Source: Candidatus Micrarchaeota archaeon (GTDB lineage: Archaea > Micrarchaeota > Micrarchaeia > Anstonellales > Bilamarchaeaceae). From it: DNA of 53,732 nt. Shown here one piece after another: positions 6,560-29,162 of this stretch. The stretch spans positions 1-53,732 of the forward strand of contig JBBITJ010000003.1 in the NCBI GenBank assembly GCA_037440825.1, in the 5' to 3' direction. The stretch's first letter is position 1. The number at the start of each line of letters is the position of its first letter. The position numbers and the translations under genes are program-made. The notes under the pieces are model-generated. The model saw only the letters and a program-made list of their open reading frames with translations. It ran no database searches and was not told the DNA's origin.

Positions 6560-6607
6560 CAAAGCACCTTTATTGAGCGATAAGGAATACCTATTCTGCT
6601 CGCATGC

Positions 6608-6629
6608 TTTTTATATATTATTATATAAT
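6608..6629. promoter_or_regulatory. AT-rich TATA-box region of the divergent promoter between leuS and the membrane-paralog operon
   Basis: 'tttttatatattattatataat' is the only AT-rich stretch in the 80-nt divergent intergenic region. It lies about 15-35 nt upstream of the ATG at 6643. Confidence 0.5.
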
Positions 6630-6642
6630 ACTTCTCGATAGC

Positions 6643-7839
6643 ATGCTTCCCGTACCGATGGCAGCGGCGCTTCTGGCGGCCTACCCGACTTTCCAGGACG
6701 CTCTCTCGGGCTATTTCACGGATGTGCTTCCGCTCATCCTCGCCTCTTTCGCAATAAGCCTGTTCGTAACCGCGCTCATGTACATGGCAGGCAGCGCACT
6801 GCAGTCGCAGGACTTGCTTGCATTGGGCAAGGACAACCTGGCCAACCTCTTCTTCTCCGCGATAATCGTGTTCATGTTCCTCGCGCTGTTCGCGATATTC
6901 CAGCAGTTCGCGTCAGCCATCGCGTGCGGCCAGCCGTGCGACCACCTCCAGGCCGCGTATTCGAGCGTCCTCATGCTGCGCTCCAAGCTGATGTCCCTAT
7001 ACTTCAACCTCTACTTCTACGAGCTCATATTCGGTTTCCTCTCCACGCTGGGCTTCTCCATTCCTCTTCCTGCGCTCGGTCCGGCGAGCCTGCTCGCATT
7101 CATCATCAACCTTCCCACCATTTCGTTCGCGCCCCTCTCGGGCCTCACTCCTCTTTCAAATGCGCACACCATAGTGGTCGAGGCGGTGGGAACCGCGCTC
7201 CTCGCCGTGCTGGCGAGGCAGGTGCTCCTCGAATTCGTGATGAAATACATGTTCGTCTTCCTCGTGATCGGCGCAGGGCTGCGCTCCATGTGGTTCACCC
7301 GCCGCACGGGCTCGAGCATACTCGCACTCGCCGCAGTCTCGTATTTCGTCTATCCGCTCGCCGTCCTTCTCTCCAACTACCTCATCTTCCAGGCGTACGA
7401 GCCCGCGAACTTCGGAGTCATACCTACCTCCATCGGCTTCTGCGAGGACTCGACCACCCTCGGATCGCTTTCCGTGATGTTCGCGAGCGAGCGCAGCAAC
7501 CTCTACAACGCGTCCATCCCCAAGTCCGAGACGAAATGGTACATGTTCTGGAACACGCTGGTTGACGGCGCGAACTACGTGGGCGAATCCGCCTCGATGA
7601 TGCTCAAGGTGCTCTGGTCGTTCAACATGAACCTCGCCTACCTGCTCATACTCTCGCCGATGGCGTTCTCCACTTTCCTGGACTTCCTGTTCATAGAGAT
7701 ACAGACCCAGGTGCAGTTCCTGGTGCTCGTGTTCGTGTGCTTCGTCACAGAGATAATAATCACGATAACGATGTACCGCGGCGTCGCGATGCTCATAGAA
7801 GGAGAATCCGAAATATTCGGAATAAGCAAGCTCATGTAA
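6643..7839 (+). CDS. polytopic membrane protein, paralog 1 of 6 (unknown family)
   Basis: About 9 hydrophobic helices. It carries the shared motifs 'LMYMAGSAL', 'LRSMWFTRRTGSS...YFVYP' and the tail 'GESEIFGISKLM'. The track start at 6604 would translate the TATA region, so I prefer the ATG at 6643 (6658 is also possible). Confidence 0.8.
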   Translation: MLPVPMAAALLAAYPTFQDALSGYFTDVLPLILASFAISLFVTALMYMAGSALQSQDLLALGKDNLANLFFSAIIVFMFLALFAIFQQFASAIACGQPCDHLQAAYSSVLMLRSKLMSLYFNLYFYELIFGFLSTLGFSIPLPALGPASLLAFIINLPTISFAPLSGLTPLSNAHTIVVEAVGTALLAVLARQVLLEFVMKYMFVFLVIGAGLRSMWFTRRTGSSILALAAVSYFVYPLAVLLSNYLIFQAYEPANFGVIPTSIGFCEDSTTLGSLSVMFASERSNLYNASIPKSETKWYMFWNTLVDGANYVGESASMMLKVLWSFNMNLAYLLILSPMAFSTFLDFLFIEIQTQVQFLVLVFVCFVTEIIITITMYRGVAMLIEGESEIFGISKLM

Positions 7840-7848
7840 GATGGTGAA

Positions 7849-8760
7849 ATGGCGTTCCTGTTCGAAACCCTTGTGCCGACAATCGGCTTCCTCATGGTGC
7901 TGATCATAATGCTCGCCTACGTTGGCGGCAAGATCTTCCGCATCCCGTCCTGGGAGGCGTACTTCAATGTGGAGCTCCACAACCTCGTGTTCGCGGTCCT
8001 GCTGCTGAGCGTAGCGTTCGCAGCGTACGAAGGGATGAACTCGCTCGCGTACGACGTAGTTGGCGCGAGCCCGGTGCAGGCGTCCATGTCCTTCCTCAAC
8101 AGGATAACGAACAAGGGCGTGCTTCCAATGTACAAGGACCTGCTCGGCATAGAGGCAGGGACCGCGATGAGCAACTCGTTCTACATCAGGATGGGGCCCG
8201 GAGTATGGTCCTACACCAACAAGATCGAGCCGGGCGCGGACGCGATCCTCTCCATGGTGAGGCTCATGAGCATGGGCCTCATAGTGATATACGGAAGCCT
8301 GAGCATCCAGTACATCGGGCTCAGCCTGGTGGATTTCGGGATGCCGCTCTCGCTCTCGCTCGGAGTGCTGCTCTTCATACTTCCCTCCACGAGGGAGGCG
8401 GGCGCGTTCCTCATGTGCTTCGCATTAGCGTTCCAGATAATATTCCCGTCGCTTTACGCGCTCAACCAGGTGATACTCGATGACATGGCGTGCGCCCGCG
8501 CGACTGCGGAAGGCAACGCGTGCGAGCCCTACGATGCGTATATTCCTGAAATCGCGCTCTTCGGTGTGCAGGCAAGGGGAGTTTCTTTCCTGTCCTACCT
8601 GGTCCCGCTGGCGAGCCTGGCGAACTTCGAGCTTCTGATTCCATTCATCAATGCAATGGCACACCTCACGCTGGTCTCGCTTTTCCTGCCGGCGCTCGTG
8701 CTCACGATAACGATAGCGTTCATAAACGCGCTCACCAAATACATACTGGGAAGGATATGA
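7849..8760 (+). CDS. polytopic membrane protein, paralog 2 of 6 (most divergent)
   Basis: A GGTGA SD lies 2 nt upstream of the ATG. It has multiple TM helices, the core 'LFILPSTREAGAF...QIIFP' and the tail 'ALTKYILGRI'. Confidence 0.75.
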   Translation: MAFLFETLVPTIGFLMVLIIMLAYVGGKIFRIPSWEAYFNVELHNLVFAVLLLSVAFAAYEGMNSLAYDVVGASPVQASMSFLNRITNKGVLPMYKDLLGIEAGTAMSNSFYIRMGPGVWSYTNKIEPGADAILSMVRLMSMGLIVIYGSLSIQYIGLSLVDFGMPLSLSLGVLLFILPSTREAGAFLMCFALAFQIIFPSLYALNQVILDDMACARATAEGNACEPYDAYIPEIALFGVQARGVSFLSYLVPLASLANFELLIPFINAMAHLTLVSLFLPALVLTITIAFINALTKYILGRI

Positions 8761-10166
8761 GACTCGCACTTTTCGCCCTGATGGCCGTTGCGGCCTCGTT
8801 CGCTGCGGAAATCCAGGAGTTCTACGAGCCCAGCAACCCCGATTCCCTCTATTTCGCGTGGGGCGTGCTCGCAGCAGGGGCGCTCACGCTGAGCATATTC
8901 CTTGCAGGAATAATCTACATGGCCGGCAATTTCCTGATGAACGAGAAGATCAAGGGGTGGGCGAAGGCGGAAGCGGTGGAAATCCTCTATTCAGGCGTCC
9001 TGCTCGCGGTGGTCGGCGCGTTCTACCTAACCGCGAACCAGGTCGCCAGTTCGCTCGTGTACAGCATAGACACGTACAGCGCTGACCTCGTGTGCAGCAC
9101 TTCGAATCCCTTGTTCAATACGTTCACCATGCATGGCGAGCCTGTTGATCTGGGCTACGCGCATCTTCCCTGCCACATGCGGGTAGCGAAGAATTTCCTC
9201 GCATCCATCTTCTACGAAACAGGGGGCTTCGTGAAGAGCGTCGGCGTTACCCATTCGTGGTACACCTACCTCTCATCGTTCTCGTTCGACTTCACTCCAG
9301 TGGGCACGACAACTTTCTTCTCCGGCGGGAGCTTCAACTTCGCCATATTTGGGTTCCTGAACGCGAAGAACAACGCGCTCTCCTTCCTTTTCGACAACGG
9401 GATAAAGGTGCTCACGCTCGTGCGCTTCCAGGAGGTGCTAATCAATTTCGTAGGCACCGCGCTCTTCCCCGTGCTTCTCATGGCCGGGCTGGTGCTGCGC
9501 ACGTTCATGCTCACCCGCCGCCTTGGAGGGCTTCTGATGGCCATGGCGATCTCGCTATACTACGTCTTCCCGGCGTTCTACGTGCTCGGCGACAGCGTGT
9601 ACACCTCCATCATCCTGGCAAACTACAACAACTCAGTTCCGCTGGAGAACAGGAGCGCGCTGGCGCAGATATTCACGGACTTCAACGCGATGCCCAAGAA
9701 GATAAACGATTCCTACCAGGAGAACATGGCGCTCGCCACCAACGGGAGCAACGCCTCCTCCGAATTCCTGAGCCAGATCGGGCTCCTCACGTCCACGACG
9801 CTGTGCAACAAGACCGCGGAAGAGGTGCAGAACTACACGAACCAGTACGGCAGCGTGACCGGCGCGAACCTGAGCGTGGTGTTGGATTCCTTTGGCTCTG
9901 AGAACCGCCTGCTCGGTAGCTGGCTTACGGACTCTTTCAGCAAGGGCGGCACGCCATGGTACCTGGGCGGAGGGGTGACTGACGCGGTCATGAACACCGC
10001 GAGCTTCAGGTCGATACTCACAGGCATAGACGTGCTCGCGAAAGCAGTATTCTTCTCCATGTTCTTTTCGTTCATATCCATATTCGCCACGATTGCCTCT
10101 GTCAAGTCCCTTTCCCCTATGCTGGGCGGGGACGTGGAGATAGCCGGGCTTACCCACCTCATATGA
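8757..10166 (+). CDS. polytopic membrane protein, paralog 3 of 6, with signal peptide and sequon-rich loop
   Basis: ATGA overlap with paralog 2. It has the signal peptide 'MRLALFALMAVAASFAAE', the motifs 'IIYMAGNFLMNEK' and 'LRTFMLTRRLGGL...YYVFP', a loop with many N-x-S/T sequons (NRS, NDS, NGS, NAS, NKT, NYT, NLS) and the tail 'GGDVEIAGLTHLI'. Confidence 0.8.
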   Translation: MRLALFALMAVAASFAAEIQEFYEPSNPDSLYFAWGVLAAGALTLSIFLAGIIYMAGNFLMNEKIKGWAKAEAVEILYSGVLLAVVGAFYLTANQVASSLVYSIDTYSADLVCSTSNPLFNTFTMHGEPVDLGYAHLPCHMRVAKNFLASIFYETGGFVKSVGVTHSWYTYLSSFSFDFTPVGTTTFFSGGSFNFAIFGFLNAKNNALSFLFDNGIKVLTLVRFQEVLINFVGTALFPVLLMAGLVLRTFMLTRRLGGLLMAMAISLYYVFPAFYVLGDSVYTSIILANYNNSVPLENRSALAQIFTDFNAMPKKINDSYQENMALATNGSNASSEFLSQIGLLTSTTLCNKTAEEVQNYTNQYGSVTGANLSVVLDSFGSENRLLGSWLTDSFSKGGTPWYLGGGVTDAVMNTASFRSILTGIDVLAKAVFFSMFFSFISIFATIASVKSLSPMLGGDVEIAGLTHLI

Positions 10167-10175
10167 TGTGAACCT

Positions 10176-11396
10176 ATGACCCCCTGCACTGCACAACGTG
10201 GTTTCCATTCGAGTGTTCTCGACTGTCTGTTGAACGTTGCGTTCAACATCCGGCCCCCGGTTCCGGGTTTCGGTCTCGCCAGCTTCGGGAAGCTCGCGTT
10301 CGCGTTCCTGCTCCTGGCTGCCATTGCCGGCGCGCAGGGATACGATCCTAATTACAACAACCCGGAAGATCTCAGCAAGACCGTGAACGAGAATATAGAA
10401 ATAATAAAGAATTCCTCCCTGATCGCGGCCTGCACCGCAGCTCCCGGCTCGCATGATTTCCAGACTTCCGTGCTGTCCAATTCGCTCCTCGCGCTGTTCA
10501 TAATGGCGATGGTCATAGGGCTCATGTACATGGCAGGGAACTTCCTCCAGGTGCAGAGCGTGCTCGTGCTCGCGAGGCAGGAGATAAACGAGTTCCTGAT
10601 AACCGCGCTCATCGTCGTGTTCTTCACCATGATAATCTCCGCGCCCACTTATTTCGGCATAGACCTTTTCGACCAGGCAACGACTTACAGCTACAAGATG
10701 CTCTACAAGGTCGGCTCGGTCTCGTCTGTGCTGGTGAGCGCGAACATCGTCCTCAATTCCATCTACACGATCTACATACCGTTCGGGCAGATAAGGAAGG
10801 CGCTCACGATGCAGCTTGGGCCCGCGCTGCGGCCCATAATAGACGGCGTTTCGTTCTCGCTCCAGTTCCTCATCACCACCTACGGCGAATGGACGGTGTT
10901 CGTGTTCATGTTCTGCTTCATCCAGCGTTGGTTCCTGCCATTCTTCTTCCCGCTCGGCCTGATAATGCGCTCATTCCCACAGACGCGCGGAGGGGGCAAC
11001 GCCCTCATCGCATTGTCCATAGCCCTCTCCACAATCTACCCGTTCATGTTCTTCGTGGATTCCGTGATCTTCGCGAAGCAGTTCCCCGAGGACACCAGCA
11101 TAGGCGCGTATTTCGAGCAGGCGGTGCGTTCGGTGTTCGCCGCGCTCGGAATCGGAGGCGTGGCCGCGGTGTTCTTCGGCTTCTCGCTCATATTCGTCTC
11201 GCCCATACTCGTGGGCGCGCTGCTGCTCATCTCATACTTGATGTTCGACGTCGGGTGGGAAGTCCTCCACCTGGTGATGATCTTCAGCATAATCCTGCCT
11301 GTATTGAACATATTCCTCACCCTCTCGTTCACGAGGGAGATATCGAAGCTGCTCGGGACGGAAATAAGCCTGGGGGCGTTCGCAAAGCTGATATGA
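10176..11396 (+). CDS. polytopic membrane protein, paralog 4 of 6, with unusual N-terminal extension
   Basis: The only in-frame ATG is at 10176. A 38-aa extension encoded by heptad arrays precedes the signal peptide 'KLAFAFLLLAAIAGAQG'. It carries the motifs 'LMYMAGNFLQVQS' and 'IMRSFPQTRGGGNA...STIYP' and the tail 'GTEISLGAFAKLI'. Confidence 0.8.
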   Translation: MTPCTAQRGFHSSVLDCLLNVAFNIRPPVPGFGLASFGKLAFAFLLLAAIAGAQGYDPNYNNPEDLSKTVNENIEIIKNSSLIAACTAAPGSHDFQTSVLSNSLLALFIMAMVIGLMYMAGNFLQVQSVLVLARQEINEFLITALIVVFFTMIISAPTYFGIDLFDQATTYSYKMLYKVGSVSSVLVSANIVLNSIYTIYIPFGQIRKALTMQLGPALRPIIDGVSFSLQFLITTYGEWTVFVFMFCFIQRWFLPFFFPLGLIMRSFPQTRGGGNALIALSIALSTIYPFMFFVDSVIFAKQFPEDTSIGAYFEQAVRSVFAALGIGGVAAVFFGFSLIFVSPILVGALLLISYLMFDVGWEVLHLVMIFSIILPVLNIFLTLSFTREISKLLGTEISLGAFAKLI

Positions 11397-11397
11397 C

Positions 11398-12453
11398 ATG
11401 GGATTCTACCTTCCGGAATACAAGCCCTTGATGGACACGGCTGTATGCCAGCCGGGCTTCAGCGAGAGCTTCTTCTATTTCCCGGACTGGGCGTCCACGT
11501 CCCTGGTCGCCCTGCTCGCGTCTGCGTTCATCCTTGCATTCCTGTACATGTTCGCCTCTATGTTCCAGAACCAGCAGAGCGTGGCGCGCGTGAAGATAGA
11601 GCTGTACGAGCTTATAGTCACAGCCGCGATATTCGCAGTCCTCTTCATGATGCTCAACGGCATGTGCAGCATCCAGACCGGATGGATATTCCCCGGCGCA
11701 GGGCACAACTCCAAGGTGCTCGGATGGGAGGACTGGAGCGGCAAGTCCATATACTATTCCTCTTTCAACTACCTGATGGAATTCGCCGATGACACGCTGA
11801 TAGTGATGAGCTACCAGTATCTCGGCTATGCGTTCATAGACTTCTTAACGAGCATGGAGATCTCCTCCACGCCCATGGGCATAGGGGCCACGATGAAGCC
11901 AACTTCCGGGCTGGGCGCGGTGGTGAAGCCGGTGCTCAACAACGCGTTCAGCGTCGAGATCCTGTCGGTGATAACCGCGCAGGCGCAGGTATACGTGATG
12001 GACTACGGCACGTATGGCATGCTGAAATACCTTCTGCCCCTGGCGCTCATAATGCGCAGCTTCACGCTCACGCGGCGCATAGGCGGCACGATAATCTCCA
12101 TCACCATTGTTTTCCTGTTCGTCTACCCGCTGCTCGTGATACCCTCGTACATGGTCGTTAACGACTCCCTGTTCGGTAGCATATCCAAGTACCTCCAGGG
12201 CGGGCAGTATGCAGGCGTGTGGGGGGCCAGCACCTACTTCTGGGCCGTTATAGAGATGATGTTCAAGTTCCTGTGGAGCCCGGACTTCCTCTTCGGCTAC
12301 GCGCTGCTCTTCATGCCGTTCATAGCCAAGATATTCATAGGAGGCGTGTTCATGCCCCTCTTCAACACGATAATACTCACGAACACCGCCAAGTACCTGT
12401 CCAGGTCGCTTGGAGAAGAGATAGATATAACAAACCTGACCAGGATGATTTAG
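11398..12453 (+). CDS. polytopic membrane protein, paralog 5 of 6
   Basis: The start is 1 nt after the paralog 4 stop. It carries the motifs 'FLYMFASMFQNQQ' and 'IMRSFTLTRRIGGT...LFVYP' and the tail 'GEEIDITNLTRMI'. Confidence 0.8.
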   Translation: MGFYLPEYKPLMDTAVCQPGFSESFFYFPDWASTSLVALLASAFILAFLYMFASMFQNQQSVARVKIELYELIVTAAIFAVLFMMLNGMCSIQTGWIFPGAGHNSKVLGWEDWSGKSIYYSSFNYLMEFADDTLIVMSYQYLGYAFIDFLTSMEISSTPMGIGATMKPTSGLGAVVKPVLNNAFSVEILSVITAQAQVYVMDYGTYGMLKYLLPLALIMRSFTLTRRIGGTIISITIVFLFVYPLLVIPSYMVVNDSLFGSISKYLQGGQYAGVWGASTYFWAVIEMMFKFLWSPDFLFGYALLFMPFIAKIFIGGVFMPLFNTIILTNTAKYLSRSLGEEIDITNLTRMI

Positions 12454-12482
12454 CATGACGGGCGTTTACACGAGTGATTTTG

Positions 12483-13484
12483 ATGGCTGATTGGGAAGCC
12501 CTGGCGATAATGGCCGCGTTCATTGCGGTGCTGGTGTCAGCCCTGCTGCTAATGCTCTCCCGCATACTGGACTTCAAGATCCTAGAGCAGTCCGCAAAGG
12601 CAGAGCTGGTCTTCGCGGCCAGCTCTGTAATACTTGTGATATTCCTGATTGGCGCGGTGAAATACGGCACCGACATAGGAAAGACCGTGTCAGCGAGCAT
12701 GTACCTGTACTCCTACCAGCACGTCGGTGAACTCCACTTCCTGAATGCCTCTGGGCAGGAGCAGGTGCTCGACACATCGATTTTCAGCAGCCCGGACTAC
12801 ACGCTCAACGAAATCGTGATACTCTACATGCGCTCGGTGATGTACTGCGCCGAATCAGTGGGCAATTCCGCGTTCTATGTCAGCCTCGCGGCGCACCAAA
12901 TATCCTCCTTCTCGCAGGACGTGTGGATGGCGTACCCTATAAGCGCATGGGCGTGGGGCGGCATCGCGCAGGCGGCTGACAACCTCCTCAACACATTCTA
13001 CTTCATGGAGCTTGTATATCGCATACAGATATACGTGATGAGGTTCATGGACGTGTTCTCCCTGAGCTACCTGCTTCCCATAGGCATACTGATGCGCTCC
13101 TTCCCTCCCACTAGGGCAGCAGGCGCGTACGTGCTCGCGTTCACCATCGGGGTATACCTGGTTTTCCCGATCGCTTACCTAGCTGCCGTTTTCTCTTCTC
13201 CATACCCTGCGCTCTGCGCAACCCCCCAGCTTCCGGAAATCCCGCAGGGCGAGAGCTCCAAGGCCGGCATACTGAGCCAGCTCGTGATGTGGTACCGCGC
13301 CTTCGAAGGAGACCTTCTGGATTTCGTCGACAAGTTCTCTGACTTCACCAACTCGCTGCTCATAAACCTGTGCTTCTTCCCGTTCCTAGCGTTCGCGATA
13401 ATGATAACGTTCGTGCAGTCGTCCAGCGGGCTGTTCGGAGCCAACGTGAGCGAAGTCGGCCGGGGGCTGATCAAGCTTATATGA
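12483..13484 (+). CDS. polytopic membrane protein, paralog 6 of 6
   Basis: ATG at 12483 (the track uses the GTG at 12474). It carries the motif 'LMRSFPPTRAAGAY...YLVFP' and the tail 'GANVSEVGRGLIKLI'. It is followed by a hairpin (cctagc-cgca-gctagg, 13487-13502) and a T-rich stretch. Confidence 0.8.
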   Translation: MADWEALAIMAAFIAVLVSALLLMLSRILDFKILEQSAKAELVFAASSVILVIFLIGAVKYGTDIGKTVSASMYLYSYQHVGELHFLNASGQEQVLDTSIFSSPDYTLNEIVILYMRSVMYCAESVGNSAFYVSLAAHQISSFSQDVWMAYPISAWAWGGIAQAADNLLNTFYFMELVYRIQIYVMRFMDVFSLSYLLPIGILMRSFPPTRAAGAYVLAFTIGVYLVFPIAYLAAVFSSPYPALCATPQLPEIPQGESSKAGILSQLVMWYRAFEGDLLDFVDKFSDFTNSLLINLCFFPFLAFAIMITFVQSSSGLFGANVSEVGRGLIKLI

Positions 13485-13552
13485 ACCCTAGCCGCAGCTA
13501 GGAGTGCCCTGCCCCAGTTTTGTTTATAAAATTACCCTCCCTATCCATCAGC

Positions 13553-14107
13553 ATGCGCAAGTTCGTGATAGACACGAGCGTCTTCGTGAACCACCAGGCC
13601 GCGAAGGCGTTCGGTCCGAATCCCAGGAAAGCCCTCGCTGCATTCGTGAAGATCGTATCCAAAAAGAAGGACTGCGAATTCTACATGCCGGACAGCATAT
13701 TCCGCGAACTCGGAAATTTCGTCGGCAGCGAAACATCGCGGCTCGAGACGGTGGTGAAGAGGCGCTCGCCGAACGTATACGCGATATACCTTCCCGCAGC
13801 CGTGTTCTACGATTTCGTCGAGGAAGTGCGGTGCAGGATAAACAAGGGGCTGCGCATAGCCGAGGAATTCGCCAAGGACAACAAGCCGGAGAACGCCGAG
13901 AAGGTGCAGAAGCTCAGGGAGAAATACAAGGAGGCGCTCCGCACCGGAATCGTGGACAGCAAGGAGGATTTCGAGCTCGTGCTCCTGGCGAAGGAGCTGG
14001 AGGCAACGCTGGTGAGCGCAGACGAAGGAGTATTGGATTTCGCCACGAAAATAGGATGCGAGATCCTCCACGCGTCCAAACTGAAGCCAGTAGTTTCGAA
14101 GAAATAG
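13553..14107 (+). CDS. PIN-domain protein, RNA ligase partner family (MJ_0950-like)
   Basis: It starts 'MRKFVIDTSVFVN' (PIN acidic-residue pattern) and is about 184 aa. It lies tail-to-tail with a Pab1020-type RNA ligase. The ATG at 13553 is preferred over the TTG at 13520. Confidence 0.65.
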   Translation: MRKFVIDTSVFVNHQAAKAFGPNPRKALAAFVKIVSKKKDCEFYMPDSIFRELGNFVGSETSRLETVVKRRSPNVYAIYLPAAVFYDFVEEVRCRINKGLRIAEEFAKDNKPENAEKVQKLREKYKEALRTGIVDSKEDFELVLLAKELEATLVSADEGVLDFATKIGCEILHASKLKPVVSKK

Positions 14108-14111
14108 CCGC

Positions 14112-15179
14112 CTAATCCGTTATCCCCTTTCCATTCAAAAATTCCTTCAGCCTTTTCGAGCTCTTCACGTAAATCTTCCTGAACCGTATCCTAGTTCTGG
14201 TCCCTTCGTCCCGCTCGAACACGGTTTCGAGCTTCACTTCCTTGCTCATGTGCGATTTCAATTCGTCCCACACCAGCGGGTCCTTCACGGTTATCTCGAA
14301 TTCATCGTAAACGTGCCCTTCTTTCTCGAGCATCTTAAGCCCTTCCGCGAATCTCCCGTACACCGCTTTCCCGAGCTTCTTCCCGTATTCCTCCTCGCTG
14401 AGCCCGTACTCATTCACGAATATCGCTGATCTCAGGAGCCGCTGGTTGAAATGCCCTGTGGGCATGTCGAAGAGCGCCTTTATGCATATCCCTATGTCCT
14501 CTATGTCAGCGTTCGGGTTCACGTATTTCACGAGCTGCTTCCTGTCCTCGGACTTGAACACGATTCCTTCCTTCCCCTCCTTGTTCACGTTTAGCACAAG
14601 CTCCCTCAGCTTTTTAGCGTCCTTGGTTTTGTGGAATTTTCCAAGGTACGGCGCAGGTACGAGACCGTGCTTCTTCAGGAACGCGTAGCGCTCCTCAGGG
14701 GCGAGGTAGTCCTCCTTCGCGAGGTCGTAAACGTCGAAAACATAATACCTGACGTCGAAATCGCTGCGCGGGTGCGTGTAAGGCGTGTTCCCGATCATCT
14801 CCCCGCAAAGCATCATCCCCTCCACTGCCGCCCGAGGCACGAGCTCCCTCAGCTTCTCGGTGGAAAATGCGTCTATTATCCCGCCTCTGCTCAACCCGTA
14901 AATCTCCCCCCCGATCGCTGCGCAGCGCAAATTGTATCCGTCTATCTTCTCTTCCGCGTGCACGCTTTCGCTGCTTATGTTGCGCTCCAGCCCCTTCTCC
15001 AAGGTGAATATCCTCTTTATGTGCGGAAAACCCGGAAAAACGGCTCCGCCTGCCAGCACAGTCCCCCTTTCAACCCCTCCATGCGCACTCCTGAGCCGCA
15101 CGTATGAGACCGGGCCGTAGGTGCGCTTCTCGGCAGCGCCCCTCTGGATGAGCTTTTTAAGTTCGGCGTCGGAAAGCAT
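14112..15179 (-). CDS. ATP-dependent RNA ligase, Pab1020/Rnl3 family
   Basis: 355 aa. It has the nucleotidyltransferase motif I 'EEKIDGYNLR' (KxDG), and its length and organisation are typical of archaeal Rnl3. Confidence 0.75.
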   Translation of the reverse strand: MLSDAELKKLIQRGAAEKRTYGPVSYVRLRSAHGGVERGTVLAGGAVFPGFPHIKRIFTLEKGLERNISSESVHAEEKIDGYNLRCAAIGGEIYGLSRGGIIDAFSTEKLRELVPRAAVEGMMLCGEMIGNTPYTHPRSDFDVRYYVFDVYDLAKEDYLAPEERYAFLKKHGLVPAPYLGKFHKTKDAKKLRELVLNVNKEGKEGIVFKSEDRKQLVKYVNPNADIEDIGICIKALFDMPTGHFNQRLLRSAIFVNEYGLSEEEYGKKLGKAVYGRFAEGLKMLEKEGHVYDEFEITVKDPLVWDELKSHMSKEVKLETVFERDEGTRTRIRFRKIYVKSSKRLKEFLNGKGITD

Positions 15180-25435: not shown

Positions 25436-26059
25436 ATGGCAAAGGCATTCATATTCTCTATAGACGCGTTTGTCGCATTCACGTTCGTGCTCATAATGAT
25501 ACATTCCCTCATCTTCATCGCCGCGGTCCCGTCCAGCTATTACGGCGGGCTCACGCAGGCTAATTACCTTGCGAGGGACACCGTAGCGGCGCTCGCAGCC
25601 GCTAACTCGAGCAAGCTCATATGCGACCCCGCCGATTCCGGCTACAACGAGTGCGTTTCGGACTATTCGCAAGTAACTCTCCTCGACTACCTGATGAGGC
25701 ACAGGGACGCTGACACCATAAGGGCGCACGTGGGCGCGCTCATTCCGGAGCAATACGGCTACGCGCTCGAGCTCTGGGATTCAGGCACCGGATCATGGAC
25801 AACGCTCTACGACAGCGCGGATTACGATTATTCCGAGGATCCGCACGCGAAGTCCTACCACAAGCTCATGGTATCTTCGCATTCGCTCTTCTTCGGCTAC
25901 GACAGCGACGGCGCCCGCGGTTTCCACATCCCCTACTGCTACATAACCTGCAACCCCGGCTCCTACGGCGGCTGCCCCACTCCCTGCGACGAGCCGGTTT
26001 CCAATTACGACGAAGGGCAGGCGGACCTCGGGCTGGTGAGGCTCACGGTTTACAGGTGA
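25436..26059 (+). CDS. type IV prepilin-like (class III signal peptide) protein 1
   Basis: The N-terminus 'MAKAFIFSIDAFVAFTFVLIMI' has a short charged leader, a hydrophobic helix and an acidic residue at about +6. The TATA-like 'ctttttaaag' lies about 27 nt upstream. Confidence 0.65.
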   Translation: MAKAFIFSIDAFVAFTFVLIMIHSLIFIAAVPSSYYGGLTQANYLARDTVAALAAANSSKLICDPADSGYNECVSDYSQVTLLDYLMRHRDADTIRAHVGALIPEQYGYALELWDSGTGSWTTLYDSADYDYSEDPHAKSYHKLMVSSHSLFFGYDSDGARGFHIPYCYITCNPGSYGGCPTPCDEPVSNYDEGQADLGLVRLTVYR

Positions 26060-26063
26060 ATGC

Positions 26064-27587
26064 ATGGCCCGGAAATCCAGGGGATTCTTCTTCGTGCTGA
26101 TCTCGTTCATACTGCTGCTCTATATATTCCTCTACCTCGCGGCTTGGATAAGCGCGATAGAGATATCGGAAAAGGCATCATCCGAGAGGTTCAGGACCGC
26201 GTCGGTTTCAGGCATAATGTCCCAGCTCACCAAGGAGCGGCTTGACAATTTCTTCGACATCGCCGGCTATTACGCCCTGTTCAAGATAAACAACCATTCG
26301 TCGGATCCCGCGCACCCCCTCCAATACGACCCTGCGGACGAGCTGCGATACCTGAGGGGCGCGTTCTTCGGCTGCGTTTTCAACGGCACCTCAGATGATT
26401 TCGAATCTGTTTCGCTGGATTACTCGGACGATGAAAAAGGCACGTACACGTTCTACGCATGGATGGACAGCCTGAACCGCACGCTTTCGCAGGCTGGGCT
26501 GGAGGTGGTCTCGTTCAGCGTGTCCAACGAGAATTTCACGCAGCTGGACCACGTGACGTTCAACGCGTCCATGGACGTTTCCATATACGTGAGGGACCGG
26601 CTTTCCACGGTTTCAGTGAACAGGAGCTTCAGCCTAAGCCGCCAGTTCAACGTCACCGGATTCCCTGACCCGATGATCACGAGGGAATACAGGCTCATAG
26701 AGCCCTCGTCGACTGTGGAGCGGCAGATATTCTTCAGGAACATATCTCTTTCGAACCTCACTCCGATAAACGTGATCAACGGCACGCAGGGCCAGGGCTT
26801 TTTCTACGGCCCAATGATCGCTGCTGCTGACGTGACCTCCACCAACCCGATACCATCCCAGAGGTGGCAGTACATCCTCGTGGGCAGCTTCGAAGACATA
26901 GTGGACGTGGCGAATTACGGCCAGTTCGGCGCGTACATCGTCACGAGCGCTGTGGAGTATAACAGCTACGACGGCTGCAGTCCGAGCGAGGAAGGGACTT
27001 TCAACGCCATCCAGAACAGAACCTCTTCGTGCAACGTGACGATCGCTTACCCTACTGACAGGCCGTTCGCGGTCATCGAAGGTCTTGATATCAATTCGTT
27101 CCGCGGCCCGGGAGGGGAACACCACGCGCTTTTCATAGCAGAGCGCTCGGTAGAGCAGGTGGCGAACAACCCTGCGGACAAGCTGGGCGAAGTGGTGGCT
27201 TACGACATCGAGGACCTGAGGGACGCCATGATATGCACATATTTCTTCCCGTCCGGCCGCGGCCCTTCGTATGCGCAGCGGCTCTCGTCTGATGCGATTT
27301 CCCTCTCAAGCGCCTCTTTCGGCATGGAGACGTTCCTGCTGGGCATGTGGGCAGGAGGGAGCCAGCTTCCAGATTACGAGAATTACAGCCGCGTGGACTG
27401 GGAATTCTTCAACATGCTGGAGGGAGTGAAGTTGCGGGGCATGGCTGGATGCAAGAGCCCCTCAATGTGCGCCGCTGCAGTAGGCTCTGACGCACAGGTG
27501 GGGCAGTTCAGGCTCACGGATGAATCCATAAGAGAATACGGCGCAGGGGGCATCGCCTGCAACGACGGCCGAGCGGGGTGCGACTAA
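26064..27587 (+). CDS. large pilin-like/adhesin-like protein 2 (507 aa) with prepilin-like N-terminus
   Basis: It starts 'MARKSRGFFFVLISFILLLYIFLY' and has many sequons in the body. It is 4 nt downstream of protein 1. Confidence 0.65.
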   Translation: MARKSRGFFFVLISFILLLYIFLYLAAWISAIEISEKASSERFRTASVSGIMSQLTKERLDNFFDIAGYYALFKINNHSSDPAHPLQYDPADELRYLRGAFFGCVFNGTSDDFESVSLDYSDDEKGTYTFYAWMDSLNRTLSQAGLEVVSFSVSNENFTQLDHVTFNASMDVSIYVRDRLSTVSVNRSFSLSRQFNVTGFPDPMITREYRLIEPSSTVERQIFFRNISLSNLTPINVINGTQGQGFFYGPMIAAADVTSTNPIPSQRWQYILVGSFEDIVDVANYGQFGAYIVTSAVEYNSYDGCSPSEEGTFNAIQNRTSSCNVTIAYPTDRPFAVIEGLDINSFRGPGGEHHALFIAERSVEQVANNPADKLGEVVAYDIEDLRDAMICTYFFPSGRGPSYAQRLSSDAISLSSASFGMETFLLGMWAGGSQLPDYENYSRVDWEFFNMLEGVKLRGMAGCKSPSMCAAAVGSDAQVGQFRLTDESIREYGAGGIACNDGRAGCD

Positions 27588-28063
27588 TGAGTTCCCTGTT
27601 CCCAGTTTCGAGTTTTGCGGCGAAACCAGAGATCCCCGGTCCGAAACCGCGCAATGCATGCCTGAAGGGACAGTCGTCCCTGGAAATGCTCGTAACCGTG
27701 GCCGCGCTGCTCGCATATTCCCTGCCTATCGTGCTCCTGGTATTCTCGTTTTCCTACATGAAGCTGGAGGACGTGGCGCTCACGCAGGGGCGCGCCACAG
27801 TCCAGCAGCTCTCCGACGGCGTGAATTCCGTCTATCTCCAAGGAGAGGGCGCAAGGCACTCCATGCTCATAGACCTTCCGTCAGGCACGAGGAATCTCAC
27901 CGTGTCAGGAAAGACGATAACTCTCTACATTTCAGCCACAGGCGGCACATATTCCATTTCCCACCCTATTTTCGCCAACGCGAGCAGCTTCACGATTTCG
28001 GACCGCGTGGGGCTCATAAAAATCACGATGAGGATGGAAGGTGGACAGGTGATTCTGGAATGA
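27587..28063 (+). CDS. type IV prepilin-like protein 3 with long leader
   Basis: The taATG overlaps the upstream stop. A 27-aa leader ends in 'LKGQ', followed by 'SSLEMLVTVAALLAYSLPIVLLVF' (Glu at +5). No in-frame ATG lies closer to the hydrophobic helix. Confidence 0.65.
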   Translation: MSSLFPVSSFAAKPEIPGPKPRNACLKGQSSLEMLVTVAALLAYSLPIVLLVFSFSYMKLEDVALTQGRATVQQLSDGVNSVYLQGEGARHSMLIDLPSGTRNLTVSGKTITLYISATGGTYSISHPIFANASSFTISDRVGLIKITMRMEGGQVILE

Positions 28064-28653
28064 TTCCCAACCTCCCAATGGCATCAAAGCGCGGTTCCCA
28101 GTTCCCAGTTCCCAGTTCCGGCGCGATACCCAAAACTCAAAACAGGAAACCCCTTGTATCTACCAGCACTATGCCGGCACTGCGAGGCCAGGTGGCCACG
28201 GAGTTCTTCGTCTATTCCGCAGTCTTCCTCATAATCGTGCTGGCAGCGTACTTCAGCATATTCTTCGTGCAGAGCGCGGAAGTGGCGAACAAGGAAGCCC
28301 TCTACGTGAAATGGTTCGGCGAGCGCTTCGCATCGAACCTGAACACAGCGATGAGCAGCGGCGAGGGATTCTCGATGAAGATGGCGTTCTCTCCATACAT
28401 CCTGGAGAAGCCCTACTCGGTGTACATAAAGCCTGCACGCGCGGGCAGGAACGGCTTCGTGTTCATAACGTGGAGCGCGGGCAACGTGACCTATTCTTAC
28501 CCCATAGGTAACATGAACATAGGCGCAGGCGACAGCTGCGTGCACGCCATATCTTCCCCTGACGGCGCATACTACGAGATCACGAGCGCGAGAGGGGAGC
28601 TCTGGTTCGAGAACGACGGCAGCTCTATAACCATCACACAGGGATGCACATGA
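28060..28653 (+). CDS. type IV prepilin-like protein 4 (long-leader start; alternative short-leader start at 28171)
   Basis: ATGA overlap at 28060. The sequence '...MPALRGQVATEFFVYSAVFLIIVLAAYF' has Glu at +5. The ATG at 28171 would give a classical 7-aa leader. Confidence 0.6.
   Translation: MIPNLPMASKRGSQFPVPSSGAIPKTQNRKPLVSTSTMPALRGQVATEFFVYSAVFLIIVLAAYFSIFFVQSAEVANKEALYVKWFGERFASNLNTAMSSGEGFSMKMAFSPYILEKPYSVYIKPARAGRNGFVFITWSAGNVTYSYPIGNMNIGAGDSCVHAISSPDGAYYEITSARGELWFENDGSSITITQGCT
28094..28121 (+). repeat. tandem heptanucleotide repeat (GTTCCCA)x3 plus a partial copy
   Basis: 'gttcccagttcccagttcccagttccgg' is read directly from the sequence. It is followed at 28129-28153 by an inverted degenerate array 'cccaaaactcaaaacaggaaacccc'. 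Confidence 0.9.
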
Positions 28654-29162
28654 AAGTTTCCAGTCTCCAGTCTCCTGTTTCGAAGTGCGGATTTAAGAAA
28701 GGCCAGTACTTCAGCTTCGACGCGATAGTCGCTTCGGTGCTCTTCGCGCTGACATTCATAACCCTGGTGAGCTACTGGTTCAGCGTGAAGTCCGGCTTGG
28801 AATCCAAGGATGAGGAGATGCTCAAGGAGGCCGCGAGGATAAGCGACGCGATGCTCAACCCTGGCCTGTTCCAGAACTCTTACAGCGATCCGCGCGTCAG
28901 CCTGAGCCGCATAAAGTCGTTCGAGGGCAAGAGCCAGGATGAGCTGAAGGAGATGTTCAACACCCCCTACAATATCTCCCTGTTGGTGGATACGGAAGCG
29001 GGCACCCGCATAGCGGCCGTGGGCCCTGATCCGACCGACCCGGCATATTCATACATATTCTCCAATGTTGTCAACACAGCCAAGATGCGGAGGATCGTCG
29101 TAATCCAGGTCAACGAGAGCTACGAAACTCCTGCTGCGCTGGATATCTACCTGTACAACTAG
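28644..29162 (+). CDS. type IV prepilin-like protein 5 with long leader
   Basis: There are ATGs at 28644 and 28650, and the latter forms an ATGA overlap with the upstream stop. The leader ends in 'FKKGQ', followed by 'YFSFDAIVASVLFALTFITLVSYWF'. Confidence 0.65.
   Translation: MHMKVSSLQSPVSKCGFKKGQYFSFDAIVASVLFALTFITLVSYWFSVKSGLESKDEEMLKEAARISDAMLNPGLFQNSYSDPRVSLSRIKSFEGKSQDELKEMFNTPYNISLLVDTEAGTRIAAVGPDPTDPAYSYIFSNVVNTAKMRRIVVIQVNESYETPAALDIYLYN

Follow-up and report, generated by a model that had tools for sequence, protein, structure and literature searches.

A 53,732-nucleotide stretch of DNA from a Candidatus Micrarchaeota archaeon (contig JBBITJ010000003.1 of assembly GCA_037440825.1; hereafter the window) contains six plus-strand genes for polytopic membrane proteins, G1 to G6, at positions 6643-13484. 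The six are paralogs that diverged long ago. We consider it probable that they are versions of the subunit at the VirB6/CedA position of an apparatus derived from a type IV secretion system (T4SS), similar to the archaeal Ced/Ted systems, which in Micrarchaeota would be chromosomal and passed on vertically. The family is assigned to the VirB6/CedA slot, where it probably works like VirB6, on the grounds of gene position, of topology and of a top structural match, a weak one, to TrwI/VirB6; membership of the TrbL/VirB6 family is not claimed, and the six-paralog family may be homologous to VirB6 proper. New here, with well-supported functional context, is what is probably a T4SS-derived archaeal apparatus with a membrane core of six paralogs that is usually encoded apart from its ATPase. 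Full-text literature searches found no T4SS-like system or VirB6-like array described for Micrarchaeota. The genomes of Micrarchaeota and other DPANN archaea are tiny, and these organisms depend on hosts; to our knowledge the machinery that moves material between DPANN partners is largely unknown. A conjugation-derived apparatus across the sampled Micrarchaeota would be a candidate for such transfer machinery.

Six paralogous membrane proteins in a fixed order

The six genes of the window are:

G1, 6643-7839, plus strand, 398 amino acids (aa), paralog 1
G2, 7849-8760, plus strand, 303 aa, paralog 2, short form
G3, 8757-10166, plus strand, 469 aa, paralog 3
G4, 10176-11396, plus strand, 406 aa, paralog 4
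G5, 11398-12453, plus strand, 351 aa, paralog 5
G6, 12483-13484, plus strand, 333 aa from the ATG or 336 aa from a GTG at 12474, paralog 6

From G1 to G6 the intergenic gaps are +9, -4, +9, +1 and +29 nucleotides (nt), the overlap of G2 and G3 being an ATGA at 8757-8760. An earlier note on this DNA, made by a model from the letters and a list of open reading frames (ORFs), had given the six co-directional ORFs, their lengths, the gaps and the overlap at 8757 exactly as we found them, and had called the six products paralogs. Pairwise BLASTP matches among G1-G6 were weak yet colinear. In a six-way alignment T-R-x-x-G was invariant, as was a proline 19 residues past the threonine. Profiles of the ortholog groups were built from 35-71 orthologues per gene gathered from 70 other loci, and in hhalign every pair of these profiles matched, in many cases almost end to end, with a probability of 99.4-99.9% (E 1e-21 to 1e-36). 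Reversed-alignment controls, in which composition and hydrophobicity are preserved, remained below 3% probability with E above 0.01. An artefact of hydrophobic composition was rejected on the basis of these negative controls, and G1-G6 are confirmed as true paralogs.

Two of the motifs listed earlier needed correction. The motif of the first hairpin ([IL]-Y-M-A-G...K-x-E) is degenerate in G2 and G6. The C-terminal tail, G-x-[ED]-[IV]-x(4-6)-[LF]-x-[KR]-[LMV]-[IV]-COOH, had been ascribed to all six proteins and is present in G1, G3, G4, G5 and G6; G2 ends in ...TKYILGRI and is the sole paralog without a tail, in every species examined.

Hydropathy gave a common layout for the family. A hairpin of transmembrane (TM) segments TM1-TM2 is followed by an outward loop of 31-145 aa and by a TM3-TM4 hairpin, the basic turn of which carries T-R-x-x-G and lies on the cytoplasmic side. 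Another outward loop, of 15-140 aa, then leads into the last hydrophobic helix, which is long, and a tail of 13-23 aa. The outward loops of the paralogs differ greatly in size and in content of glycosylation sites. In G1 the N-terminal two-helix hairpin and outward loop lead to a hairpin around TRRTG (residues 219-223) and the tail ...EGESEIFGISKLM. The core of G2 is degenerate (LPSTREAGAF). G3 carries TRRLG at residue 253 and the tail LGGDVEIAGLTHLI, and its outward loop past the fourth hydrophobic segment, 140 aa long, holds eight N-x-S/T sequons at residues 291-371. Both this crowding of sequons and the signal-peptide-like N-termini of G3 and G4 had been noticed previously and were borne out. 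G4 has TRGGG at residue 270 and the tail LLGTEISLGAFAKLI; its true start is uncertain, since a 28-aa N-terminal extension (window 10176-10260) precedes the signal-peptide-like segment GKLAFAFLLLAAIAGAQG and the annotated ATG lies 9 nt past the G3 stop. G5 has TRRIGG at residue 225, the invariant Pro244, the tail LGEEIDITNLTRMI and two conserved cysteines, Cys17 and Cys90, both in predicted outward segments. G6 has TRAAG at residue 210 and the tail FGANVSEVGRGLIKLI. The basic turn, the sequons in the second loop of G3 and the position of the two G5 cysteines together indicate an orientation with the N-terminus outside and the C-terminus inside. An AlphaFold2 model of G5 (pLDDT 79.5, pTM 0.76) shows helices of 43-48 residues on either side of the TRRIGG turn and small beta-hairpins in the first loop. 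Its best match in the PDB by Foldseek had an E of 0.26, and the matches, mostly rhodopsins and ABC transporters with TM-scores below 0.2, were judged meaningless.

Relatives of G5, down to 28% identity, are nearly all labelled Micrarchaeota, and so are nearly all of the 78 loci recovered in a scan of one genome per prokaryotic species. The order G1 to G6 is kept in every locus with sufficient flank (about 55 species-level Micrarchaeota genomes), each array gene scoring best to its own counterpart in the window, and these ordered arrays include species whose proteins are only 23-28% identical to those of the window. Neighbour-joining bootstrap values for monophyly of the ortholog groups were 99 (G1), 95 (G2), 100 (G3), 97 (G5), 71 (G6) and 38 (G4), and the deep branching among the groups was unresolved. 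Because the ortholog groups are monophyletic and the six-gene order is conserved, the duplications predate the sampled Micrarchaeota diversity.

Pfam and NCBIfam scans of G1-G6 gave sub-threshold noise only, and a PDB sequence-profile search with the G5 alignment returned no matches at E up to 10. A superfamily profile matched 3,312 clusters (50% identity, E up to 1e-3) among 1.84 billion representatives; all 150 matches listed were close members, and the search yields family size only. A superfamily of at least 3,300 clusters is annotated as "hypothetical" only, without a Pfam or NCBIfam model. The earlier description of the proteins as belonging to no recognisable family therefore stands for direct sequence search (Pfam, NCBIfam and PDB) and gives way where gene position, topology and the weak structural match place them in the VirB6/CedA slot.

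Association of relatives with pilin-like genes and VirB4/CedB-like ATPases

Eight loci of the genome scan hold a single family member of about 345 aa, with the core LRSFYFTRRLGGTIIAI and the tail ILGSEVSFGKFDVF. These single-copy relatives occur in Micrarchaeaceae-type genomes and match the six group hidden Markov models (HMMs) at E 1e-23 to 1e-33, and a structural model of one (pLDDT 80.7) has the same plan as G5. A ninth single-copy locus is a metagenome contig with the exact protein of Ca. Mancarchaeum acidiphilum. The relative is annotated as P0206 in this cultured archaeon, which makes the hypothesis experimentally approachable.

Directly upstream of the family member, in nine of nine single-copy loci, lies a gene for a small pilin-like protein that has a signal peptide ending in A-x-A and two hydrophobic helices joined by GQLLPPDKKANFH. 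All nine of these proteins matched Pfam T4SS_pilin (best 1.8e-5) and four of them TrbC/VirB2 (best 9e-6). The cluster runs in the order pilin-like gene, family member, c2 (about 250 aa), ATPase c1, c3, small ORFs and a protein of about 800 aa. ATPase c1 contains DUF87/HerA, AAA_10 and TraG P-loop domains, and its best NCBIfam matches were CedB (9.5e-19), CedD (2.7e-14) and VirB4_CagE (1.3e-13). These scores are far below the curated cut-offs, and c1 is therefore a superfamily relative of those ATPases and not an equivalog. The protein of about 800 aa, a second ATPase, has a weak CedD match. A tblastn search with the single-copy relative against 72,556 plasmids found nothing at E up to 10. A contig labelled "Candidatus Acidiferrales bacterium" (L074, DATLRT010000015.1), probably a mis-binned Micrarchaeota contig, has the archaeal single-copy cluster in full, from pilin and family member through c2, ATPase and c3 to c5. 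The same question of mis-binning arises for locus L059, labelled Woesearchaeota.

Pilin modules are also fused to the paralogs themselves. A long form of G2, about 520 aa, was found in 22 of 58 species and carries a signal peptide and two tandem VirB2-like hairpins (motif AAYVxGQxFGAETRA[RK]A) at the N-terminus of the protein; in a few genomes pilin hairpins are N-terminal on G1, G4 or G6. The pilin HMM matches only family members outside its own group, and an HMM of the G2 extension in return matches nine of nine pilins. G2 of the window is the short form, without pilin modules.

A metagenome scan with the ATPase alignment, in which loci were mapped with all HMMs, recovered complete arrays joined to the ATPase module. 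In two loci, L100 and L101, G1 to G6 stand in order, each best to its own group HMM at 116-175 bits, with a tail-less G2 and matching tails on the other five. Immediately after G6 come two c2 genes, then those for a VirB4/CedB-like ATPase, a small protein and a Zn-ribbon-like protein, and then c3. In L100 the gene just before G1 encodes a 121-aa protein that reaches the Pfam TrbC/VirB2 gathering score (28.5 vs. 27.9 bits). In L080 four or more paralogs in tandem precede genes for a TM protein, a c2-like protein and an ATPase of the VirB4/CedB/CedD type, L095, L096 and L098 have five or six more-diverged paralogs ahead of the same ATPase module, and in L140 G4-G6 are followed by c2-c2. Rfam searches of L100 and L101 found no RNA families. 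Directly downstream of the cluster in both of these loci lies a giant ORF of more than 1,930 aa that runs off the end of the locus (L100 15602-21509, L101 14879-20669). Its product bears a signal peptide, has a composition dominated by T, S, N and G, and brings to mind giant surface proteins known from nanohaloarchaea, which carry VirB4-like ATPase domains and have been tied to host interaction (PMC10266531).

The loci with a strong ATPase match comprised five arrays, nine loci with a single family gene and ten islets (L104, L105, L113, L115, L117, L120, L121, L125, L133 and L137). The islets contain c2, the VirB4/CedB-like ATPase and c3, along with a Zn-ribbon-like small protein and a protein of about 865 aa, and for at least 7 kb upstream of them there is no family gene. 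Some are preceded by one to three VirB2-like pilin genes (three in L120), and the three islets inspected (L104, L113 and L120) have housekeeping genes on their flanks. Such islets would be the expected counterpart of stand-alone six-gene operons like that of the window, with which they may be paired.

Comparison with known systems and alternative explanations

The family resembles VirB6 in hydropathy: both have five hydrophobic segments, start with a hairpin and have a large central loop that faces outward, and the layouts of the six proteins, the single-copy relatives and four VirB6 proteins are alike in their first four elements. A further likeness, seen in relatives of the window operon, is a gene for a polytopic inner-membrane subunit placed between pilin and ATPase-related genes. 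The C-terminal halves differ. In VirB6 the cytoplasmic C-terminal region is long and rich in K/R, and a short loop separates segments 4 and 5; at that place the six-paralog family has an outward loop of 15-140 aa, and its tail is only 13-23 aa long. The VirB6 of plasmid R388 is a homo-pentamer that forms the membrane base of the stalk, recruits VirB2 at a TM hairpin and sits above the VirB4 hexamer (PMC11294453).

Ced is the DNA import system of Sulfolobales, with the pilin CedA1, and Ted that of Thermoproteales, with the pilin TedC and the ATPase TedB. The relatives of G1-G6 share with these systems a VirB2-like pilin gene upstream of a polytopic membrane protein, VirB4/HerA-type ATPases in the cluster with CedB and CedD as best NCBIfam matches, 5-7 TM segments in that membrane protein, more than one VirB6-like paralog per system and a chromosomal location. 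The joining of pilin-like modules to the membrane protein can likewise be compared with the reported similarity between the CedA N-terminus and CedA1. NCBIfam had no match for the membrane protein. By published accounts, the gene for the VirB6-like CedA/TedA in archaea is immediately preceded by a pilin gene, and the link of TedA to VirB6 has been published as "distantly related" only (PMC9905601), while Sulfolobales possess two VirB6-like proteins, CedA and CedE, and two VirB4-like ATPases, CedB and CedD (PMC11868833). The Micrarchaeota family differs in having six paralogs instead of one or two, an array that is detached from the ATPase module in most Micrarchaeota, and a T-R-x-x-G core and a C-terminal tail motif not described for CedA/TedA, and in belonging to DPANN symbionts instead of free-living Crenarchaeota. 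If placed correctly, it would extend T4SS-like systems of the Ced/Ted type from Crenarchaeota to DPANN.

Tandem multiplication of a VirB6-position subunit is known in bacteria. Rickettsia has five tandem VirB6 paralogs with about 80% aa divergence, and its T4SS genes are scattered in islets (PMC2653234). The Rickettsiales rvh system and the Micrarchaeota family have in common diverged tandem paralogs kept across a lineage, scattered genes and host-dependent organisms with reduced genomes, and the six-gene array would give archaea a counterpart to the multiplied VirB6 of Rickettsiales, which is itself unexplained. The rvh system is bacterial, however, with four to five paralogs that are recognisable as TrbL/VirB6 and carry large extra domains (670-1150 aa), an array beside virB3-virB4, and a double-membrane system with an outer-membrane complex. 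In Patescibacteria (Candidate Phyla Radiation) a chromosomal T4SS is reported to be essential for epibiotic growth in one strain (PMC12102498). Here the likeness lies in a machine that derives from conjugation, belongs to the core genome of its ultra-small episymbiotic carriers and includes VirB4, VirB6 and VirB2-like components; the Patescibacteria system is of bacterial monoderm type, its VirB6 is recognisable by existing profiles, and no six-paralog array has been reported. A FlaJ/TadC/PilC platform was rejected, as there was no T2SSF match and no PilB/FlaI ATPase beside any array. Placement in the VirB6 slot is the sort of outcome that the earlier note had named in advance as lessening the novelty of the family. 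Of the assemblies that note had guessed at, the context evidence (pilin and VirB4/CedB-like ATPases in relatives) points to the secretion or cell-contact kind.

Several results weigh against a VirB6/CedA-position subunit. With Pfam TrbL (PF04610), neither the six proteins of the window nor eight single-copy relatives matched at E up to 10. When seven group profiles were aligned by hhalign to a VirB6 profile, a shallow one made from 13 plasmid VirB6 proteins of Proteobacteria only (R388 TrwI and relatives), the probability was at most 1.1%, equal to the reversed controls. The first hairpin of the family looks pilin-like by eye only, and its hhalign comparison with the pilin was not significant. 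Among 350,542 PDB chains the top Foldseek match of the single-copy model was 8rtd_L (E 0.05, probability 0.87, TM-score 0.26-0.31). Entry 8rtd is the stalk-arches-inner-membrane complex of the R388 T4SS and contains TrwI/VirB6; chain L is probably TrwI because its 268 residues are too many for TrwJ (229), and the match suggests a weak structural link with a chain identity deduced from length. It is the target that a VirB6-like subunit would be expected to find, at a marginal score. No T4SS chain was present in the top 50 Foldseek matches of the G5 model. Searches of the 53.7-kb window, and of the sequence within about 10 kb of the operon in 70 other stand-alone loci, detected no ATPase, c2, c3 or c5 with the respective HMMs, nor any separate pilin homologue. 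If present, the ATPase module of the window's own genome would lie elsewhere.

A mechanism can be proposed for the VirB6/CedA-position family, with the platform role modelled by analogy on R388 VirB6. The six products, probably one copy each, would assemble into a membrane platform or channel onto which the VirB2-like pilin is recruited, and a hexameric VirB4/CedB-like ATPase would dock beneath. The conserved cytoplasmic tails of five paralogs are candidate docking peptides for the ATPase or c2. G2, tail-less and in many species pilin-bearing, could be a specialised pilin-handling subunit. The machine might move DNA, as Ced/Ted do, or another macromolecule between contacting cells. We infer hetero-oligomer formation, its stoichiometry, the role of the tails, and the substrate and direction of transport. 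The retention of all six genes in fixed order with tight spacing suggests one hetero-oligomer, possibly a pseudo-hexamer matching the ATPase. A stronger form of this proposal is that G1-G6 build a single pseudo-sixfold, hetero-hexameric channel matched to the ATPase, a vertically inherited conduit, widespread in the phylum, for DNA, lipids or proteins from host cells. It would amount to a DPANN-specific T4SS core in which the homo-oligomeric VirB6-like ring has been replaced by six non-interchangeable subunits, G2 being the pilin-bearing one, and in which the fold may not be homologous to that of VirB6; we regard this form as unlikely. As targets for further work we suggest the T-R-x-x-G turn, the tail at the C-terminus, and G2, which has no such tail and in many species bears pilin modules.

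The separation of most arrays from the ATPase also fits another explanation, in which the six-gene operon of this lineage, once split from the ATPase module, left the T4SS-like machine and works alone as a lineage-specific membrane complex, such as a passive pore, an anchor for a surface layer or appendage, or a platform for uptake of lipids or metabolites. It accounts for the failure to find ATPase, pilin, c2 and c3 in the window and around the 70 loci, for an operon with promoter-like and terminator-like elements of its own in a conserved housekeeping block (LeuRS or AspRS upstream; PIN_5, RNA ligase and CarS downstream), and for the short G2 of the window clade, which has lost the pilin-like modules. 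However, five of the six paralogs keep the cytoplasmic tail, as do the single-copy and ATPase-linked versions, which argues for a retained cytoplasmic partner. Ten c2-ATPase-c3 metagenome loci without a family gene indicate that the complementary half is encoded somewhere, and scattered T4SS genes have a precedent in Rickettsia (PMC2653234). We judge the operon acting alone to be quite unlikely.

Alternatively, each paralog may form its own homo-oligomeric channel or platform, specialised by substrate, partner or condition. The single-copy relatives evidently work with one member, and a homo-oligomer is thus viable for the fold, as the homo-pentamer of R388 VirB6 also illustrates (PMC11294453); the great variation of the outward loops would suit such specialisation, which has been proposed for the five Rickettsia VirB6 paralogs (PMC2653234). 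Nevertheless, about 55 species, whose genomes are reduced, have kept all six genes, closely spaced or overlapping and in a fixed order, and full-length loci hold one gene per ortholog group in identical order, a pattern that subunits of fixed stoichiometry fit better. A G2 that is tail-less everywhere examined and often pilin-bearing further suggests a division of labour within one assembly. We therefore give little credence to six separate homo-oligomers.

That G1-G6 belong to an integrated conjugative or other mobile element, the usual carriers of T4SS-like genes, is very improbable given the identical housekeeping flanks in distant species, paralog groups that appear to track species divergence, a G+C content at third codon positions (GC3) equal to that of neighbouring genes (0.76-0.82 in G1-G6, about 0.75-0.8 in the genes of the window, which has 55% GC overall), and the lack of an integrase or relaxase in any cluster examined. 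In favour of such an element, a short ORF upstream of the array in L101 (256-621, minus strand; MLKVKVSDMQLSYKFRLYPSRKQEEKLLW...) may resemble the N-terminus of an IS200/IS605-type OrfB/TnpB.

Candidate transcription signals and neighbourhood of the window operon

The elements and genes that border the operon are:

6608-6630, plus strand, TATA-like AT-rich element ctttttatatattattatataata, ending 12 nt 5' of the G1 ATG at 6643
13518-13525, plus strand, T-run ttttgttt, 34 nt past the G6 stop
13553-14107, PIN_5, first gene after G6
14112-15179, RNA ligase, second gene after G6

The TATA-like element sits in the 80-bp divergent spacer between G1 and the minus-strand LeuRS gene and is a candidate archaeal promoter for the operon, which would then have a short leader or none; with the alternative G1 start at 6604 the element would fall within the ORF. 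The T-run is, by its sequence, a candidate archaeal terminator of the operon. It overlaps a TATA-like box at 13523-13531 that belongs to the next gene, PIN_5, the likely start of which is the ATG at 13553, in agreement with the N-terminus of its orthologue in locus L001 (MRKFVIDTS). The promoter-like and terminator-like elements and the separate TATA-like box of PIN_5 make G1-G6 resemble a single transcription unit.

Among 71 loci, PIN_5 is found downstream of the six-gene operon in 34, RNA ligase in 29 and a CarS-like gene in 19; upstream, AspRS is found in 17 and LeuRS in 13. A functional tie of G1-G6 to PIN_5, RNA ligase or CarS was rejected, as these neighbours look like a general synteny block.

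Further downstream, at 25436-29162, the window encodes clustered membrane proteins whose N-termini are pilin-like (MAKAFIFSIDAFVAF..., ...KGQYFSFDAIVASV...) and which have no Pfam matches; this cluster had been singled out before as a possible companion of the six genes. In about 10 other species homologues of the cluster do follow the six-gene operon within 6 kb. This may be mere synteny, or the cluster may supply a partner resembling a type IV pilus, in the way that Ups serves Ced.

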